A stretch of DNA of 64,000 bases, taken from positions 356 through 64,355 of the forward strand of contig CAMWJV010000005.1 of NCBI GenBank assembly GCA_947174665.1, in the 5' to 3' direction. The position numbers and the translations under genes were made by a program. The notes beneath the pieces are model-generated. The model worked only from the letters and a program-made list of their open reading frames with translations. It was not told the DNA's origin and did no database searches. This document shows positions 22,149-39,136 of this stretch, piece by piece; the first letter of the stretch is position 1, and each line of letters starts with the position of its first letter. Source of the DNA: an uncultured Lachnospiraceae bacterium (GTDB lineage: Bacteria > Bacillota > Clostridia > Lachnospirales > Lachnospiraceae).

Positions 22149-22204
22149 TTTTTTACCTCCTTATAGAATTGTTTGGGGTTGTCCCCTGCCGAAAGGAGTT
22201 TTAT

Positions 22205-22330
22205 AAAAGAAAAACCTTCCTGAAGACAGGAAGGTAAAAAGTCTCGGTAAAACTCTTTCCTCGGTAGGCGTCCTTTAGAACTTACCCCGGAAATCGCTCC
22301 CCGGGACCTACTGTCTTCGGCTTTGGTCTT
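22205..22330 (-). promoter_or_regulatory. L10 leader (rplJL autoregulatory attenuator)
   Basis: Minus strand CCGAAGACAGTAGG...CCTACCGAGG, then terminator ACCTTCCTGTCTTCAGGAAGGTTTTT whose CTGTCTTC can pair with the upstream GAAGACAG; TTGACA-18-TATTAT promoter at 22344-22373. Confidence 0.85.
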
Positions 22331-22391
22331 GTGACCGTAAAAGATAATAACATAAGGGGCTGACTTCTGTCAACCCCTAACTTTACTAACT

Positions 22392-32148: not shown

Positions 32149-33733
32149 GAAGAAACCGTTAAAAACTGCATTGATCCTTGTCCCGGTATTGTTGACGGCA
32201 CTGACGCTGGCGGCAGCTGCGGCGTATGCCCTTTGGAATGCAGGCGCTTTCCTGCCCCGGTGGATCCGGTGGACTGACGCATCCTTTCAGGATGAGACGG
32301 GGGATTATCAGATTACGCTCAGCCATAAAACCGTCAGCGTCACATGGCAAGGCAGCGCCGTCGGACAGAACACCTCCACCGAACAGGATAGCGCCGCCGG
32401 GCGGGACTCCGCCGGACGCGGCGCTGTCATATGGACCTCTCCGAAGGGCGTAAAGGTTCAAAAAGTGCTGTCCGCCGACATCGACAATGACCACCGGGAA
32501 GAGCTTATACTGCTCTGCTGGAAAATAGGACGTTACGGCAAGGACAGGCCCTTCTGGGTGGAAAAAGACGAAAAGAAGTGGTCGCAGCACCTCTTTGTGT
32601 ATGAGTATGTCAACGGAGAAATCAAGCCAAAGTGGATGTCTTCTTACCTGGGAAAGGATTTAGCGGATGTCTCCACATACCGCAGGGCAGATTCTCTGAA
32701 CCGGCTTTTGTTTACGGATTTGAATGGTGAGACAAGCTGCTGGAAATGGGATTCCTGGGGCTTCACCTTAGAGGACACCGCCGTTTCCTTTGTTGCTTTC
32801 GGAGACAATCTCATTCATGAGCCCTTATATAACTATGGCTTGCAAAACGACGAGGCTTTTGGGTTTTTATTTGAAAATTTTCAGAATACTATTTCAGAAA
32901 GCGATGTGGCTGTCATTAACCAGGAGACGCCGTTGGTGGACAATCCTCTCCTGTACAGCGACTATCCCCGGTTCGGCACTCCCATCGGCGTGGGGGAGGC
33001 CATTGTAAATGCTGGTTTTGATGTGGTGACCTGCGCCACAAATCATGCCCTGGACAAAGGAAAAGACGGAGTCAAAACCACGAGGGAATTCTTTGACTCC
33101 CGGAACGTAACGTGTTTAGGAATACAGACTGAAGAAGAGACAGAATACCGGCCCTATGAAATCATCGCGAAAAAGGGCATCCGCTTTGCGCTTCTCAACT
33201 ATACCTACGGCACAAACGGCATAAAAATTCCCGATGATGCCCCCCATATGGTTCACCTTCTGGATGATGAGGAGAGAATCAGAAAAGATATTGAAAACGC
33301 CCGGGCGGAAGCTGACTTTGTCATCCTCTTCGTTCACTGGGGCACGGAGAATTCCACAGAAACAGACGAATTCCAGAAAAAATGGACTGAGGTTTTTCTG
33401 GACGGCCGTGTGGATGTAGTCATCGGCACACATCCCCACGCTCTCCAGCCCTGTGAAGTCCTGACGGCAGAAGACGGGCACGAAATGCTGGTTTACTATT
33501 CCATCGGCAATTTCATCAGCACCCAGCCCGAGCAGGTATGCACAAAGGGCGGCATGGCAAGTTTCACCGTGTCGCCCACTGCTGACGGATATAAAATTAC
33601 GGAATATTCCCTGGAGCCTCTGGCCATCACCTGGCACAAGGGCGGCAGATATACAGTTGATTACGCTTTCACGCCAAATCCTCCGCCCGACAGCCTCTCC
33701 TCAAATTCCGCTTCGGGAATCGGTTTGGAATAA
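32129..33733 (+). CDS. CapA/PgsA-family metallophosphoesterase-fold membrane protein
   Basis: GDNLIH, NQET, ATNHALD, HWG.E, GTHPH, YSIGNF; N-terminal TM. Confidence 0.85.
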   Translation: MNRTTTKKKPLKTALILVPVLLTALTLAAAAAYALWNAGAFLPRWIRWTDASFQDETGDYQITLSHKTVSVTWQGSAVGQNTSTEQDSAAGRDSAGRGAVIWTSPKGVKVQKVLSADIDNDHREELILLCWKIGRYGKDRPFWVEKDEKKWSQHLFVYEYVNGEIKPKWMSSYLGKDLADVSTYRRADSLNRLLFTDLNGETSCWKWDSWGFTLEDTAVSFVAFGDNLIHEPLYNYGLQNDEAFGFLFENFQNTISESDVAVINQETPLVDNPLLYSDYPRFGTPIGVGEAIVNAGFDVVTCATNHALDKGKDGVKTTREFFDSRNVTCLGIQTEEETEYRPYEIIAKKGIRFALLNYTYGTNGIKIPDDAPHMVHLLDDEERIRKDIENARAEADFVILFVHWGTENSTETDEFQKKWTEVFLDGRVDVVIGTHPHALQPCEVLTAEDGHEMLVYYSIGNFISTQPEQVCTKGGMASFTVSPTADGYKITEYSLEPLAITWHKGGRYTVDYAFTPNPPPDSLSSNSASGIGLE

Positions 33734-36579
33734 AAATATCCCTGGGCAACATTTGCTCCGATTTCCTGCATCAGCCGGATATCTGCCTCCGTCTCCACTC
33801 CCTCGCAGACAATCTGGGCCTCCAGGTTTTGCGCCATGTTCACGATACCGCGCATGATCGCAACCTGTCTTGTATGATCCTGCTGGTTGAGCAGGAAAGA
33901 ACGATCCAGCTTAATCACAGCTGCCGGAATCTGCTCAAAGATTCCCAATGAGGAATGGCCTGCTCCAAAGTCGTCAATGGAGAGATGAATTCCCTTCTGG
34001 TGCAGCGTATCCAGAGTCTCCTTTACCGTATTCTGCTGAAGCTTCTCAATCACAAGAGTTTCTGTAATCTCCACCTCGATCAGATTCCTGTCTATCTGAT
34101 ATTTATTGAGAACCCCTTCAAACTTTTCTGCAAAACCCGGTTTGATAAAATGCATTCTGGAAAAATTGCAGGAGACGGTGACAACTTTCTCCCCTGCATC
34201 CAGGCGTTTTCTCAGCATCCTGCACACAGATTCATAAACAAAGAAATCAATCTCTGTGATTCTTCCCGTCTGCTCATAGTAAGGAACAAAAAATCCCGGT
34301 GCCTTGACCGCCCCGCCCTCCGCAGGGTTCAAAAACCTTACCAGTGCTTCCGCACCGACGATTTCTCCGTTCCGAATATCAACCTTCGGCTGATAATAAA
34401 CTACAAAATCCTTCCACACATCCACTGACTGCAGCAGCTTCTCACGCTCATGGCGCTCCTTGATCATCTGTTCCAGCTTATCGTCATAGACCTTAATGGC
34501 ATTGTCATCTCTGTCACCCGTGAAATCCAGAGCCTGGCTGGCATAGTTCAATGCAACCTGCAGATCCTTTCCATGCTGTCCCAAAAAATACAGCCCCATC
34601 CGCACCGGCATATAGTTTTCCGTCTTCTTATAAATATACCCTTCCACTGTATTTTTGAGGGAGTTCAGCCGCTCCAGCAGCGTTTCCTGCTGTCCGCAGG
34701 TCAGCAGCAGCGCAAAGCGGTCTCCCTGATTCCTGGCACAAATCTCAAGGTTCCGGTCCACACTGCTTGTTAAAAGGTCCGCTATGCCTTCCAGCAGCTT
34801 CTCGCCGGCATCCCATCCGTAAATAATATTATAATGACGGAACTGTGACACATTCAGATACACCACAGCATAATTATTCTTATGTTCCGGCAGCAGCCTG
34901 CGCTCTCCCCAGTATATCAGGTAATTCAGATTCCAGATGTCCATAAAGGTATCTTTATACATCAGCTTACGGATTTTCTGTTCGTCTCTGATAATATGCG
35001 CTGCCACGGAAAGCACCAAGATCAAAACACCCAGCAGTATCAAGATGATCACAGAACTGTGGTTCCGGATAAAAGTACGGAGATTTGCCAGGGGATATAC
35101 ATTCGCCTTCAGCATATACTCATTGATCGCCCGATAGTCAATCGAAGTGATCGTCTTTGCCAGAATGGCAGAGAGCAGCCTGTCTTCCTCCCGCACCACC
35201 ACGGAAATGGGATACTCGCTCTTAAACACATTCTTTATCTGTAGATTCTCATATTGAAAATCCGTCCGAAACAGATCCTCCGCCATATATCCGTCACACA
35301 GGACAGCATCCGCTTCCCCGTTTTTAACGGCCTTCAGGCCCGCCTGTTGTGTATCATAGATCTTTATTTCTACATTCTGCAGCAAAACTGCGGATTTTGC
35401 CTCATTCTCGAGATAAGAAACTGTGCCAAGAGTCTTAATATCACTCATATTTCTGTTCTTATCCATCACAAGAACCAGAGGAACATCTGCATATTCCCGC
35501 GCCGCCGTGAGATAATGCCTGTCCAGAACCTCCTTTGAATCCGCACTGTACACCAGGATGTCAATATCTCCATCCTGCAGGGCTTTTCTGGCTCTCCCTT
35601 CATCCTTCAGACACACATACTCCAGCCGTTGTCCCGTCATGGAAATGCTGCTCTCCAGCATTTCCCTGGAAAGGCCCTTAAACTCGCCGTCATCCTCGTA
35701 GGAAAAGGGATAATGCCCGTCCAGATACCCCACCACGAGCAGATCCGTCTCCTCCAGATATTCCTTCTCCTCCGTGGTAAGCAGGGCCGCCTTGTCAAAT
35801 CTGTTGTAATAAAATGTATTCATCAGCTCCGCTTCCAGCCCCGGCTGATTGATCTTCAGATCCGCAATGGCCTGGTTCAGTTCCCGCATCACATCTTCAT
35901 TGCCCTGGTAACTGATATAATAGAAGGGGCGGGGTGCAAAACGCCCGATCAGGCGCTGTCCTTCCTTAATCTCCGTAAAAGTATGTACCAGCGCGTCAAT
36001 CTCCCCCGCATCCAGCGCCTGCTGAAGCTTTTCGGTTGACTCATATTCCTTAACTACAGGAAAATCGATTCCATTATCCGAAAGATACTGCAGGAACTCC
36101 TCCTTCCGGACATAGTTCTCTACCATGCCAAAGGTAACACGCCGCATGGCAAGAAAATCTTCATATGCAATAGTACCATCCGCATTGGTCGCGATTACCC
36201 CGAAGGTATAACCGCTGGCAAGATCCGCATACTGGTAAATCTCCGCCCGGCTTGCGGAATACTGAGCGGAACCCACCAGATCAACCTCCTTATCCGCCAG
36301 CATCTGCAGCGCCTGCTCCCAGCTGGAGCACTCCACATACTCAATATTCCAGTCCGCATAATCGCATAACGCCCTCAGATAGGACACATCCATACCATCC
36401 AGGCTTCCGTCCTGATTTTTGATGTGGTAGCCGTCCATGGGAAAAAAGGCAACTTTCACTTGCCGTCTCTCCGCTGCGTGAACCTCACCCTTTCCAAATG
36501 TTAAAAGAAGGCTTAATATCCCCAGCCCCAGCATGATACAGGCCATTGCAACCGGCCTTCTTCTTGTGTTCTTTCCCAA
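33661..36579 (-). CDS. c-di-GMP phosphodiesterase: two family-3 solute-binding sensor domains, TM, degenerate GGDEF and EAL
   Basis: GAEALVR, EITET, IDDFGAGHSS, EGVET, QGYFYSKP; GGDEF site reads QGDRF; 3' end overlaps the convergent CapA gene by 73 bp. Confidence 0.9.
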   Translation of the reverse strand: MGKNTRRRPVAMACIMLGLGILSLLLTFGKGEVHAAERRQVKVAFFPMDGYHIKNQDGSLDGMDVSYLRALCDYADWNIEYVECSSWEQALQMLADKEVDLVGSAQYSASRAEIYQYADLASGYTFGVIATNADGTIAYEDFLAMRRVTFGMVENYVRKEEFLQYLSDNGIDFPVVKEYESTEKLQQALDAGEIDALVHTFTEIKEGQRLIGRFAPRPFYYISYQGNEDVMRELNQAIADLKINQPGLEAELMNTFYYNRFDKAALLTTEEKEYLEETDLLVVGYLDGHYPFSYEDDGEFKGLSREMLESSISMTGQRLEYVCLKDEGRARKALQDGDIDILVYSADSKEVLDRHYLTAAREYADVPLVLVMDKNRNMSDIKTLGTVSYLENEAKSAVLLQNVEIKIYDTQQAGLKAVKNGEADAVLCDGYMAEDLFRTDFQYENLQIKNVFKSEYPISVVVREEDRLLSAILAKTITSIDYRAINEYMLKANVYPLANLRTFIRNHSSVIILILLGVLILVLSVAAHIIRDEQKIRKLMYKDTFMDIWNLNYLIYWGERRLLPEHKNNYAVVYLNVSQFRHYNIIYGWDAGEKLLEGIADLLTSSVDRNLEICARNQGDRFALLLTCGQQETLLERLNSLKNTVEGYIYKKTENYMPVRMGLYFLGQHGKDLQVALNYASQALDFTGDRDDNAIKVYDDKLEQMIKERHEREKLLQSVDVWKDFVVYYQPKVDIRNGEIVGAEALVRFLNPAEGGAVKAPGFFVPYYEQTGRITEIDFFVYESVCRMLRKRLDAGEKVVTVSCNFSRMHFIKPGFAEKFEGVLNKYQIDRNLIEVEITETLVIEKLQQNTVKETLDTLHQKGIHLSIDDFGAGHSSLGIFEQIPAAVIKLDRSFLLNQQDHTRQVAIMRGIVNMAQNLEAQIVCEGVETEADIRLMQEIGANVAQGYFYSKPIPEAEFEERLSGGGFGVKA

Positions 36580-36701
36580 CTGTCTAAAATGCTTAATAAG
36601 ATCACTTCCCTTGCAACATTATTATGCAATTTTATTATGCACCTTTATCATACACTTTTTTTGGAATTTCGTCCATCAAATTTTTCCCCAAACCCACCCT
36701 C

Positions 36702-36867
36702 ATCCGACAGTTGACGCAATGGTAGTAATAAAAAAATGTAACGATGCGCGTGTATCAATACGGGACATGCGTTATTAAATAGGGAGTTGAACCCCTTGGA
36801 GGCGGTCCGCGCCTCTACCTGAGTCGGCACATTCTCTGCCGGAGAGGATACATCCACTCTGTCGGAT
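36702..36867 (-). ncRNA. Candidate structured ncRNA downstream of the DIP1984-family gene
   Basis: 9-bp closing helix AUCCGACAG/CUGUCGGAU enclosing five hairpins, one with a T-loop (GGGG-UUCAACU-CCCU). Confidence 0.55.
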
Positions 36868-36892
36868 TACCAGCTGTAAAATAAAATATGTT

Positions 36893-37345
36893 TTACACTA
36901 ATTCCGTTGTCCAGTTCAGTTCCTGGATCAACTCGTCACATTCGCGCAATTCCTTTGACAGCGCATCCACCTTTTTCTGCATTTCGGATACCGGTACGGT
37001 GCTCATGATCTTGATTTCGGAGTGAGTCATCCGATTTACCCTGCTGCTTGCGTTGTCCAGAAAATTCCGCATGATCTGAATTTTGCTTTTAAGGCAGTCC
37101 CTGTGGGCCAGAAGCTCCGTGATGGTCCTGCCGTTGTGAACCGTGTCGCTGTTGGTCAGATTGATCTTTGCAATTAACTCTTCCAGCCTGTCCACAATCC
37201 TGTCCAGCTCGGCTATAAGCTCTTCCGGTGCCTCCGAAGGTTCCTCTCCCTCCTGCACCTTTGCGTTTTGGTTTAAGCGGATTCCAAGCTCGGACAGCTT
37301 TTTCTGCAAATCTGCTCTTTCGGATAATGCCGTTGCCAGTTTCAT
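36893..37345 (-). CDS. DIP1984-family coiled-coil protein
   Basis: MKLATALSERADLQ, NAKVQEGEEPSE.P, INLTN, IQELNWTTEL; GGAGG RBS. Confidence 0.85.
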   Translation of the reverse strand: MKLATALSERADLQKKLSELGIRLNQNAKVQEGEEPSEAPEELIAELDRIVDRLEELIAKINLTNSDTVHNGRTITELLAHRDCLKSKIQIMRNFLDNASSRVNRMTHSEIKIMSTVPVSEMQKKVDALSKELRECDELIQELNWTTELV

Positions 37346-37537: not shown

Positions 37538-39136
37538 ATGAAAAAATTATCCCTTCTCCCCCGAAAAATACAGACTGAAAAGCTCCTGGTTTTCTTTATT
37601 CTTTTATTGGGCGCTGTGCTACGTCTTGCGGCGCTGGGCTGCATACCTGGCGGAATGCATCAGGATGAAGCCTTTACAGCATGGAATGCCTTTGCTCTGT
37701 TCCATGAAGGCATGGACTCCGCAGGCAACCATTTTCCCGTATATATGGCAACATGGGGCGATGGTCAAAGCGCATTGGCAACATGGCTTACAACGCCCCT
37801 GCTGATATTTTCCGGCGGTCACATAAACTCGTTTTTGAGCAGGCTGCCACAGGCGGTTGTAGCCATTTTCACCCTTTGGGCTGTGTATTGCCTGATGAAA
37901 CGGCTCTTTGGCTCCAGGGCCGGTATATGGAGTCTCTTTCTCCTTGCGATCTGTCCCTGGCATATCGTTATGTCGCGCTGGGGCCTGGACGCTAACTTTG
38001 CGCCCGGTTTCCTGATGTTCGGACTTTACTTCTTTATCCGCAGCCTGGAGCAGGAAAAATTCCTGCCGGCTGCCGCATTGTTCTATGGCCTGAGCCTGTA
38101 CTGTTATGCGGTCATCTGGCCCATCGTGCCCCTCATGCTCGCTCTGCAGATTATATACGGCTTATGTTGTAAAAAGCTTCGCATAAATAAATGGAGTCTG
38201 CTTTCCTGCCTGTTGTTGTTCCTGATTGCATTGCCGTTAATTATATTTGTGCTGATCAATTCCCTTGATCTCCCTCAGATTTCTCTGTTTTTCATCACCA
38301 TTCCCCGAATGAGCGGATTCAGAGGCTCTGAAGTTGCGTGGAGCATACCTGAAATGCTGCATAACCTGCGCAATTCCTTTTCTCTGCTCTGGCATCAAAA
38401 CACCGGGAGCCCCTATGATTTTCTCCTTCCCTGGGGATTATTTTTCGATATAGGACGTGTTTTTATCGTAATCGGCATTGTAGCTCTACTTAAAAACCTG
38501 ATTCTGAAATTTCGCAGCAAAACCTTTGCACCGGAGTTCTTCCTGTTTACTCAACTGGTGGGAGGCGCTATTGTCTGCCTTCAGGTTACCGCAAGGCAGC
38601 ACCAGATTAATGCCCTCTACATACCACTGGTACTCAGCGAGGCATATGGTGTGTGGGCTGTGACGGAATTTGCCCTTAGAAAAAAGAAAATATTGGGAAA
38701 TCTGATAGTCGGCGGACTATCGGCAATTTACCTGATATGCCTGCTGCTGTTCCAATGGGACTATTACACAGATTACCGCAGGCTTACAAGCGCTTACTTT
38801 GCGGAAGGCCTGGAGGACTGCGTAGATTTTGCATGGGAGCAGTGTCAGGAAAAAGGCATCACCACCATAACTGTCGAAAAAGGAGCACAATGGCCCCGAC
38901 TGCTCCTTTATACTGAGACCCTGCCTTCTGAGTACCTTTCTTCCGTTGTCTATGATATTGCTCCGGCTCCGGCGTGCTTTGAGACCAAGGGAATCCGCAT
39001 TAATACAAGAATCAACTATGACAACATCAACCAGGAAAGTATCTATATCATCTATTTTGCGGATGTTTCCGTTTTTGAAGAAGATTTTGCCCTAACGCAG
39101 TTCCATGACTGGTATGTTGCAGTTCCTGCCCGCTGA
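37538..39136 (+). CDS. GT-C fold membrane glycosyltransferase (ArnT/PMT-like, family 39/83)
   Basis: LR...LG..PGG.HQDEA, SRLP, AICPWHIVMSR; multi-TM. Confidence 0.8.
   Translation: MKKLSLLPRKIQTEKLLVFFILLLGAVLRLAALGCIPGGMHQDEAFTAWNAFALFHEGMDSAGNHFPVYMATWGDGQSALATWLTTPLLIFSGGHINSFLSRLPQAVVAIFTLWAVYCLMKRLFGSRAGIWSLFLLAICPWHIVMSRWGLDANFAPGFLMFGLYFFIRSLEQEKFLPAAALFYGLSLYCYAVIWPIVPLMLALQIIYGLCCKKLRINKWSLLSCLLLFLIALPLIIFVLINSLDLPQISLFFITIPRMSGFRGSEVAWSIPEMLHNLRNSFSLLWHQNTGSPYDFLLPWGLFFDIGRVFIVIGIVALLKNLILKFRSKTFAPEFFLFTQLVGGAIVCLQVTARQHQINALYIPLVLSEAYGVWAVTEFALRKKKILGNLIVGGLSAIYLICLLLFQWDYYTDYRRLTSAYFAEGLEDCVDFAWEQCQEKGITTITVEKGAQWPRLLLYTETLPSEYLSSVVYDIAPAPACFETKGIRINTRINYDNINQESIYIIYFADVSVFEEDFALTQFHDWYVAVPAR

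Follow-up and report, generated by a model that had tools for sequence, protein, structure and literature searches.

Does the DNA behind a gene for a DIP1984-family (DUF6847) protein encode an RNA that belongs with that protein? The question is raised by a locus in a 64,000-nt stretch (the window) of contig CAMWJV010000005.1, which comes from the assembly of an uncultured Lachnospiraceae bacterium (GCA_947174665.1; 3.5 Mb, 83% complete). An initial annotation of the sequence had described, downstream of the gene and on its strand, a compact multi-hairpin RNA with a T-loop, and had proposed that this RNA is co-transcribed with the gene and forms a ribonucleoprotein (RNP) with its product. The family assignment of the gene was borne out by full-length matches above the curated cut-offs of both Pfam PF20935 (E = 6.8e-54; 182.1 bits, cut-off 27) and NCBIfam NF038048 (E = 6.1e-55; 185.5 bits, cut-off 70). 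We find that the gene is followed by a conserved, structured RNA that accompanies it nearly one-to-one across genomes, and we lean toward the view that this RNA is a dedicated subunit of a DIP1984 particle.

Single-sequence folding gave no thermodynamic support (the minimum free energy does not stand out from dinucleotide shuffles, z = -0.24), and the case therefore rests wholly on comparison with relatives. A blastn search of the genus (Acetatifactor, a gut genus, judged by the names that related proteins carry) found one match, 70-94% identical, in each genome of 22 relatives besides the source; the source assembly also carries a single copy, indicating that the RNA is not a dispersed repeat. 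RNAalifold on the 23 genus sequences gave a structure of 34 pairs, and compensatory changes are seen at 15. A covariance model (R1) built from this alignment scored the window RNA at 198 bits and matched 97 sequences (94 distinct) from many genera. With the initial structure, 90.3% of cells of the R1 alignment paired, compared with 64.2% in column shuffles; after the addition of one P2 pair and a pseudoknot (described below), the values were 94.0% and 70.2%. Cells changed on both sides numbered 886, versus 245 in shuffles, and the covariation score was 0.644, versus 0.230 in shuffles and at most 0.124 when the 3' partners were slid by one to three columns. These values come from an alignment fitted to the model, which favors the model's structure, but the margin is still very large. 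Helices P1 through P5 and the pseudoknot were each more than 90% paired. Moreover, G-U and U-G cells exceeded A-C and C-A cells by 238 to 40, indicating selection on RNA of the gene's strand and not on DNA. The conserved, covarying structure that the initial annotation had expected behind DIP1984 homologs is thus present, and as a strand-specific RNA.

The limits of the element (Table 1) are the ends of the blastn matches in the genus relatives. Its 3' boundary had previously been set too short: the RNA continues for 17 nt more, to position 36685, and includes an invariant G-rich tail. The distance from the stop codon to the RNA, given before as 25 nt, is 21 nt. In the fold, P1 and P2 close a junction holding P3, P4, and the T-arm-like P5, with the P4 loop knotted to a downstream GYCC. 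Both-side changes were found at all nine pairs of P1 (90-98% of cells paired in relatives) and at all six of P2 (91.6% paired), which include the extra pair 16-158 (UA in 41 sequences, CG in 37). The four pairs of P3 (97.5% paired) all covary beneath a loop with the consensus GAGAAug, and the strongest covariation within the RNA is that of the P4 pairs. The pseudoknot joins GGRC in the P4 loop with GYCC 40 nt downstream through 4 bp, with 93.9% of cells paired (65-108, GC:67/GU:4; 66-107, GC:66; 67-106, GC:43/AU:21; 68-105, CG:58/UG:5). Both it and the extra P2 pair, neither of which had been listed before, were detected by a scan of all column pairs of the alignment.

The closing helix and the hairpins GGCA-N7-UGCC, GAGGC-N7-GCCUC, and GGGG-UUCAACU-CCCU, which the initial annotation had drawn, are in the sequence and show compensatory changes in relatives. 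Two other helices that it had drawn, although present in the letters, were rejected because conservation or pairing is lacking in relatives: (i) a local hairpin, GAG.GGA-UGUA-UCC.CUC, whose GAUGU segment pairs with GCGUC 130 nt away in the covarying P2, and (ii) a UAACG...CGUUA helix, for which at most 0.57 of cells pair. A long P6 (ACAAUGCA/UGCAUUGU) was likewise rejected; no consensus helix emerged when RNAalifold was run on the re-aligned 3' domain, and P6 was therefore reduced to two pairs, 101-123 and 102-122. The interval between P5 and P2 is resolved in part.

Table 1. Coordinates within the window of the DIP1984 gene and of the parts of the RNA that follows it
Feature	Position	Strand	Remarks
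DIP1984/DUF6847 protein gene	36893-37345	-	150 aa + stop
Spacer, stop codon to RNA	36872-36892	-	21 nt, A+T-rich, G+C 0.19
Conserved structured RNA, whole	36685-36871	-	187 nt; 21 nt past DIP1984 stop
5' GGUA	36868-36871	-	G1, G2, U3, A4 kept in 85-89 of 94 sequences
P1, 5' strand AUCCGACAG	36859-36867	-	pairs with 36702-36710
P2, 5' strand	U 36856 + GAUGU 36850-36854	-	pairs with 36712-36717
P3 hairpin CGGCA-GAGAAUG-UGCCG	36825-36841	-	7-nt loop strongly conserved
P4 hairpin GAGGC-GCGGACC-GCCUC	36799-36815	-	5 pairs, 95.9% paired
Pseudoknot, 5' side GGAC in P4 loop	36805-36808	-	pairs with GUCC
P5, tRNA-T-arm-like hairpin GGGG-UUCAACU-CCCU	36781-36795	-	4 pairs, 97.0% paired
Pseudoknot, 3' side GUCC	36763-36766	-	pairs with GGAC
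Single-stranded UUACUACC	36721-36728	-	consensus UuAcuACC
P2, 3' strand GCGUCA	36712-36717	-	pairs with 36850-36856
P1, 3' strand CUGUCGGAU	36702-36710	-	pairs with 36859-36867
G-rich 3' tail GAGGGUGGGUUUGGGGA	36685-36701	-	outside P1; G positions near-invariant, N positions free

The T-loop noticed at the outset lies in P5. Its 7-nt loop with the signature UUCRANU, its G-C-closed stem, and its consensus ggggUucgAnuccc identify it at least as a sequence motif, and the stem covaries at four of four pairs. The loop consensus across the family is UUCGAAU, and the family consensus of the whole hairpin, GGGGUUCGAAUCCCC, is the consensus of the tRNA T-arm.

Several conserved features are unpaired, namely the 5' GGUA, the P3 loop GAGAAUG, the GYA units together with UUACUACC, and the tail motif GAGGGNGGGNNNGGGGA. 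The GGUA could form a second pseudoknot with UACC (36721-36724): 89.5% of cells pair, with both sides invariant and thus without a covariation signal. Two or three GYA units (GCA, GUA, and GCA, at approximately 36745-36770) precede UUACUACC, and the spacings from one GYA to the next peak at 7, 9, 14, and 23. The tail, with the pattern GAGGG-N-GGG-NNN-GGGG, marks where the RNA ends on its 3' side in 105 of the loci retrieved; its motif occurs once in the 3.5-Mb assembly, against an expectation of 0.02 per window. Among possible roles of the tail, pairing with an AUCUCC segment was rejected, as distant members do not conserve that segment, and a ribosome-binding site was rejected, as no conserved start codon follows the tail. 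A G-quadruplex was unsupported, the invariant G-tracts numbering only three.

We compared the distribution of the RNA with that of the gene at increasing phylogenetic distance. A full-length DIP1984 gene adjoins the RNA on the same strand in 20 of the 22 relatives' loci. Within the genus Acetatifactor (269 genomes), 30 genomes carry the full-length gene and all 30 have the RNA next to it (21 by blastn and 9 more by R1). When 150 other Lachnospiraceae genera were sampled, one genome each, the RNA was present in exactly the seven with a full-length gene (downstream of it in six, upstream in one), and an R1 search of the 143 genera without one returned no RNA match. The RNA was also present in a sample of the phylum. 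Among 80 loci from GTDB species genomes, whose proteins are 55-91% identical, it was found in 78 (just downstream of the gene in 76, upstream in one, and cut by a contig end in one). These loci are labeled Lachnospiraceae, Oscillospiraceae, Ruminococcus, and Solobacterium, with some bins labeled Bacteroidales, Succinivibrionaceae, or Methanomassiliicoccaceae. The RNA lies 5' of the gene at four loci (L002, L022, L034, and L087) and 3' of it elsewhere; at L002 and L022 it is followed, after approximately 30-40 nt, by the DIP1984 start codon.

The genes beyond the RNA, by contrast, vary: an EAL protein (in the window and three close relatives), unrelated open reading frames of approximately 307 and 403 aa, or convergent genes, and the commonest neighboring gene family is common to no more than 6 of 105 loci. 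No flanking repeats were found around the element; nearby there is just a 14-nt direct-repeat pair inside the DIP1984 coding region. The RNA and the DIP1984 gene travel together as a self-contained module of two parts. Two Acetatifactor loci differ from the rest in their gene content. At L020 (genome G272), where the RNA scores 197 bits, a flavodoxin-like gene occupies the position expected for DIP1984; at L016 (genome G182), there is a 24-aa C-terminal DIP1984 fragment, and the tail is decayed at its last G-tract.

The architecture of the RNA changes with the clade of the protein. In a divergent clade of the protein (37-41% identity), R1 matched only in part, and the RNA is longer, sharing the 5' GGUGUAGC, P1 and P2, UACUACC, and a tail, GAGGGYGGGNNNGNGGGA, without the T-arm, which is also missing in some members of the main clade. 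At L060, L062, L064, and L055-L057, seven or eight tandem heptads of the form NGNGYAN, ending in UACC, replace the domain of the T-arm and pseudoknot (for example, GGGCAUU GCGUAUU GAGCACA UGUGUAU CGUGCAU AGUGCAA AGAGUAC UACC). The GYA units of the window RNA, which stand in the same place, seem to be this tract in reduced form. Near the RNA of L060 are a c-di-AMP riboswitch (2261-2435; 105 bits), approximately 120 nt past the RNA, and, upstream, CRISPR-DR2-like repeats (40-340) that score below the gathering threshold. At L074 and L075 (genomes G547 and G457), a second DIP1984 paralog lies approximately 2 kb from L051 and L050, respectively; this second gene is followed by a similar RNA start (GGUAACUUUGAUU...), UUCUACC is present, and the Shine-Dalgarno-like AAAGGAGGUGAAAA stands at the position of the tail.

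Plasmids also carry traces of the RNA. On a plasmid of the cyanobacterium Picosynechococcus, the tail alone aligned to R1, 3' of the DIP1984 gene. On the 8.7-kb Acinetobacter baumannii plasmid pA85-2, a weak R1 match (L158, 1988-2177; 8.8 bits, E = 0.039) shows P1, P2, and ACUACC, with CACCUC after P1 instead of the G-rich tail. In the "septicolysin"/DIP1984 module of small Acinetobacter plasmids, there is an unannotated gap of approximately 320 nt 3' of the gene. The DIP1984 genes of these plasmids sit in mobile modules of the pdif kind.

The arrangement of gene and RNA strongly implies co-transcription, as the initial annotation had proposed. RNA and gene share a strand, and the median distance from the last aligned DIP1984 codon to the RNA is approximately 15 nt in relatives; by a crude in-house scan, 37 of 97 loci carry an intrinsic terminator beyond the RNA, typically at 28-60 nt from the tail. 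The element itself is not a terminator, as had been stated; a terminator scan of the window flags just the T-arm-like hairpin, which has a weak tail, CUAUUUAAUA. The 21-nt spacer is neither long enough nor conserved enough for a separate promoter, and in most relatives there is no room for a -10 box between gene and RNA. A promoter-like TGGACA-17-CATATT (36885-36913, minus strand), which overlaps the end of the DIP1984 gene, was judged to be probably chance, because TGGAC is the coding sequence of an Asn-Trp that never varies and its -10 box shows no conservation. The TGGACG-17-TATGAT site that had been assigned to the downstream EAL gene is present, but such sites are no commoner than in shuffled sequence (4 versus 2.2 expected).

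In metatranscriptomes, one contig of 159 nt (97% identity) covers 36706-36865 alone, and a second RNA-library run yielded contigs from relatives that span gene and RNA, a hint that the element is transcribed, perhaps above the level of the messenger. Runs X1 and X2 provided assembled contigs from relatives only, which are uninformative on habitat or transcript ends; two runs searched as raw reads gave no reads on the element. From one X1 contig 12 nt of the spacer (36875-36888) are missing, of which the simplest account is a relative with a shorter spacer.

Next on the same strand, approximately 310 nt past the DIP1984 stop codon, is a gene for a periplasmic-binding/GGDEF/EAL protein (33661-36579, minus strand), and a gene for a PMT_2-like membrane glycosyltransferase begins at 37538, divergent to the DIP1984 gene. 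The element was correctly described as G+C-rich relative to its flanks: its G+C content is 0.51, compared with 0.19 for the first 21 nt of non-coding sequence and 0.29 for the last ~105 nt before the EAL gene.

The DIP1984 protein is predicted to be a four-helix bundle. Its AlphaFold2 model (predicted local distance difference test score 91) has helices at residues 3-26, 40-67, 75-100, and 119-146, a fold like that of the solved family member 3KDQ, an uncharacterized Corynebacterium diphtheriae protein. The two match in sequence (E = 1.2e-29), and 3KDQ was the sole relative in the PDB found by Foldseek (3kdq_A; template modeling score 0.96, root-mean-square deviation 1.2 Å). A crystal structure of a DUF6847 member reportedly dates from 2009. 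The family is widespread; one search returned approximately 2,300 non-redundant relatives. PADLOC, PHROGs, and the ESM Atlas gave no usable functional clue to the protein, and our literature search found no functional work on DIP1984, DUF6847, PF20935, 3KDQ, or septicolysin together with small RNA (sRNA). The names DUF6847 and PF20935 were not mentioned in the literature searched, and DIP1984 and "septicolysin" occur mainly as annotation labels, as on Acinetobacter plasmids.

We consider it somewhat probable that the element serves a DIP1984 particle as its dedicated RNA subunit and that one transcript supplies both RNA and protein. This reading is based on (i) the near one-to-one linkage, its independence of gene order, and the lack of conserved neighbors, and (ii) an RNA architecture that shifts with the protein clade and a fold whose elaboration goes far beyond what a cis-regulator would require. 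The RNA would form the 3' end of the DIP1984 mRNA (the 5' end in a few relatives) and, since its 5' end lies approximately 10-20 nt past the stop codon, would fold after the terminating ribosome departs. One or several DIP1984 protomers might then bind the GAGAAUG loop, the GYA units with UUACUACC, and the GAGGGNGGGNNNGGGGA tail, producing an RNP particle. Our guess is that the particle serves as an accessory module, perhaps in conflict or stress, and not in housekeeping, because the distribution is patchy, the neighborhoods change, and the gene is present on small Acinetobacter plasmids. A bolder version, which we regard as doubtful, is that of an ancient RNP machine of bacteria, archaea, plasmids, and phages, in which protomers would line up on periodic RNA units (the NGNGYAN heptads of one clade, reduced in the window RNA to GYA units and a G-tract tail) with the knotted core as a handle, and which would read or sense sequence in conflicts between mobile elements and hosts, much as VIPR and CRISPR effectors do, with an unrelated protein.

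Several observations weigh against an RNA subunit. Two of the 80 DIP1984 loci (L113 and L148) have no RNA, even with filters off, while G272 and G182, both approximately 90% complete, keep the RNA with no DIP1984 gene anywhere. The protein is not basic (isoelectric point 5.2); the family median of 6.4 is mildly acidic to neutral. Foldseek aligned the predicted structure to no known RNA-binding fold, and the Acinetobacter version of the RNA is without the G-rich tail. Finally, the RNA-library contigs could stem from contaminating DNA.

That the structure is a cis-acting element of the DIP1984 messenger, controlling its stability or translation by, for example, feedback binding or a block to 3' exonucleases and playing no part elsewhere, would explain why it is always in the same transcription unit and strand as the gene and a few nucleotides from the coding region, why terminators often follow it, and why there is one copy per gene. 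A single cis mechanism is hard to square, however, with a fold that can stand either 5' or 3' of the gene; known 3' stabilizers and feedback operators need far less than a junction of 187 nt that contains a pseudoknot, a T-loop, and three unpaired invariant segments, and the RNA is intact where the gene has been lost. We therefore think this explanation unlikely. The same gene-less genomes, G272 and G182, suit an autonomous RNA (a ribozyme, a tRNA-elbow mimic, a decoy, or a trans-acting sRNA), to which DIP1984 would be a helper or chaperone or would lend only a shared promoter. Such an RNA would also account for a hairpin that resembles a T-arm and has the tRNA consensus GGUUCGAAUCC, and its invariant tail and loops could touch other cell components. 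Yet no such RNA turned up in any of the 143 sampled Lachnospiraceae genera without the full-length gene, its architecture co-varies with the protein clade, the T-arm is missing from a whole branch and from some main-clade members, and no ribozyme or tRNA family matches it; we rate an autonomous RNA as slightly less probable than a cis-acting element.

There is very little to recommend the remaining alternative, a leader or riboswitch of the GGDEF-EAL gene or a site acting as DNA (a recombination site or the end of a mobile element). The element does lie upstream of the EAL gene in the window and three close relatives, and DIP1984 genes occur in mobile modules on Acinetobacter plasmids. In most relatives, however, the downstream genes differ or are convergent, and because they differ between loci the EAL-leader reading is all but excluded. 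No c-di-GMP or other riboswitch matched at E ≤ 10, and the window holds no conditional terminator. A DNA-level site is countered by the excess of G-U over A-C cells, the lack of flanking repeats, and the single copy per genome.

Rfam 15 gave nothing in the element region of the window at gathering thresholds or at E ≤ 10, whether riboswitch, ribozyme, or other family. The window's sole Rfam family above the gathering score is a ribosomal protein L10 leader (RF00557; 57.5 bits) at 22199-22338 on the minus strand. Across 14 diverse loci the element again matched nothing; a hit to RT-12 at L127 (29 bits, gathering score 44) was taken as chance. ARAGORN found no tRNA in the window, and the Rfam tRNA and tmRNA families had no match at E ≤ 10; of the arms of a cloverleaf (acceptor stem, D-arm, anticodon arm, T-arm), the element has a T-arm-like hairpin only. 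Neither a Y RNA nor a YrlA match was found for the element, and TROVE (PF05731) was not found in the 83%-complete assembly. Type III (ToxIN-like) toxin-antitoxin systems, in which antitoxin RNA repeats in tandem ahead of an endoribonuclease toxin gene with a terminator in between, do not fit: the RNA is single-copy and lies mostly downstream, and PADLOC gave no meaningful match.

Rfam 15 and the literature searched contain neither the RNA nor its pairing with DIP1984, and no function is known for the protein; we therefore rate the pair as a new kind of system. A near-universal, covarying RNA beside the gene turns DUF6847 into a testable RNA-protein system, in which the RNA is the second component, missed when the DIP1984 protein is expressed alone. 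It also adds a well-supported new class to the few large, structured RNAs of bacteria that have a protein of their own. Carriers available in culture include Hominimerdicola aceti, Merdimmobilis hominis, relatives of Acetatifactor muris, and, through their "septicolysin" plasmids, Acinetobacter baumannii, where the plasmid case bears on the role of a common module.

Of known systems, Ro60 (Rsr) with the Y RNAs YrlA and YrlB offers one likeness: a structured RNA of 100-200 nt beside the gene of its partner, a T-arm-like module, and a patchy distribution in bacteria and phages. The analogy to tRNA mimics and Y RNAs drawn by the initial annotation holds for the T-arm-like hairpin, of which there is one only, but not further, as the hairpin is missing in the divergent branch and there is no Ro60 (TROVE) gene in the assembly. 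Where Ro60 is a TROVE/vWA ring, DIP1984 is a bundle of four helices and 150 aa, and the element is without the long Ro-binding stem and its conserved bulge; part of the family does without the T-arm. TRAP with the trp leader of Bacillus, an oligomeric protein that reads triplets at even spacing, offers a working analogy: identical protomers of DIP1984 would each grip one short RNA unit, here the GYA of the sister-clade heptads, although this oligomeric reading is inferred. TRAP itself is a beta-sheet 11-mer that acts on a 5' leader and terminates transcription, whereas the DIP1984 RNA is mostly 3' and has a closed, knotted fold.

The VIPR system pairs a RAMP/RRM protein, Vipr, with a vrRNA of 9-16 YNNGG units of 5 nt, and its description does not mention DUF6847 (bioRxiv 10.64898/2026.04.26.720920). 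Both systems combine a minimal protein with an RNA, encoded next to the protein gene, in which G-containing units with free positions precede an invariable structured part, and both are found in phages, plasmids, and chromosomes. Membership in VIPR was rejected, since DIP1984 is all-helical (with only 3KDQ related) and its RNA has no 5-nt period; the logic of the two systems may nevertheless be similar. With the orphan RNAs OLE (with OapA), the raiA motif, ROOL, GOLLD, and HEARO, finally, the element shares an ornate fold revealed by comparative genomics, often with a linked protein. It matches none of them in Rfam, and its linkage to DIP1984 is much tighter, near one-to-one and within the same transcript.

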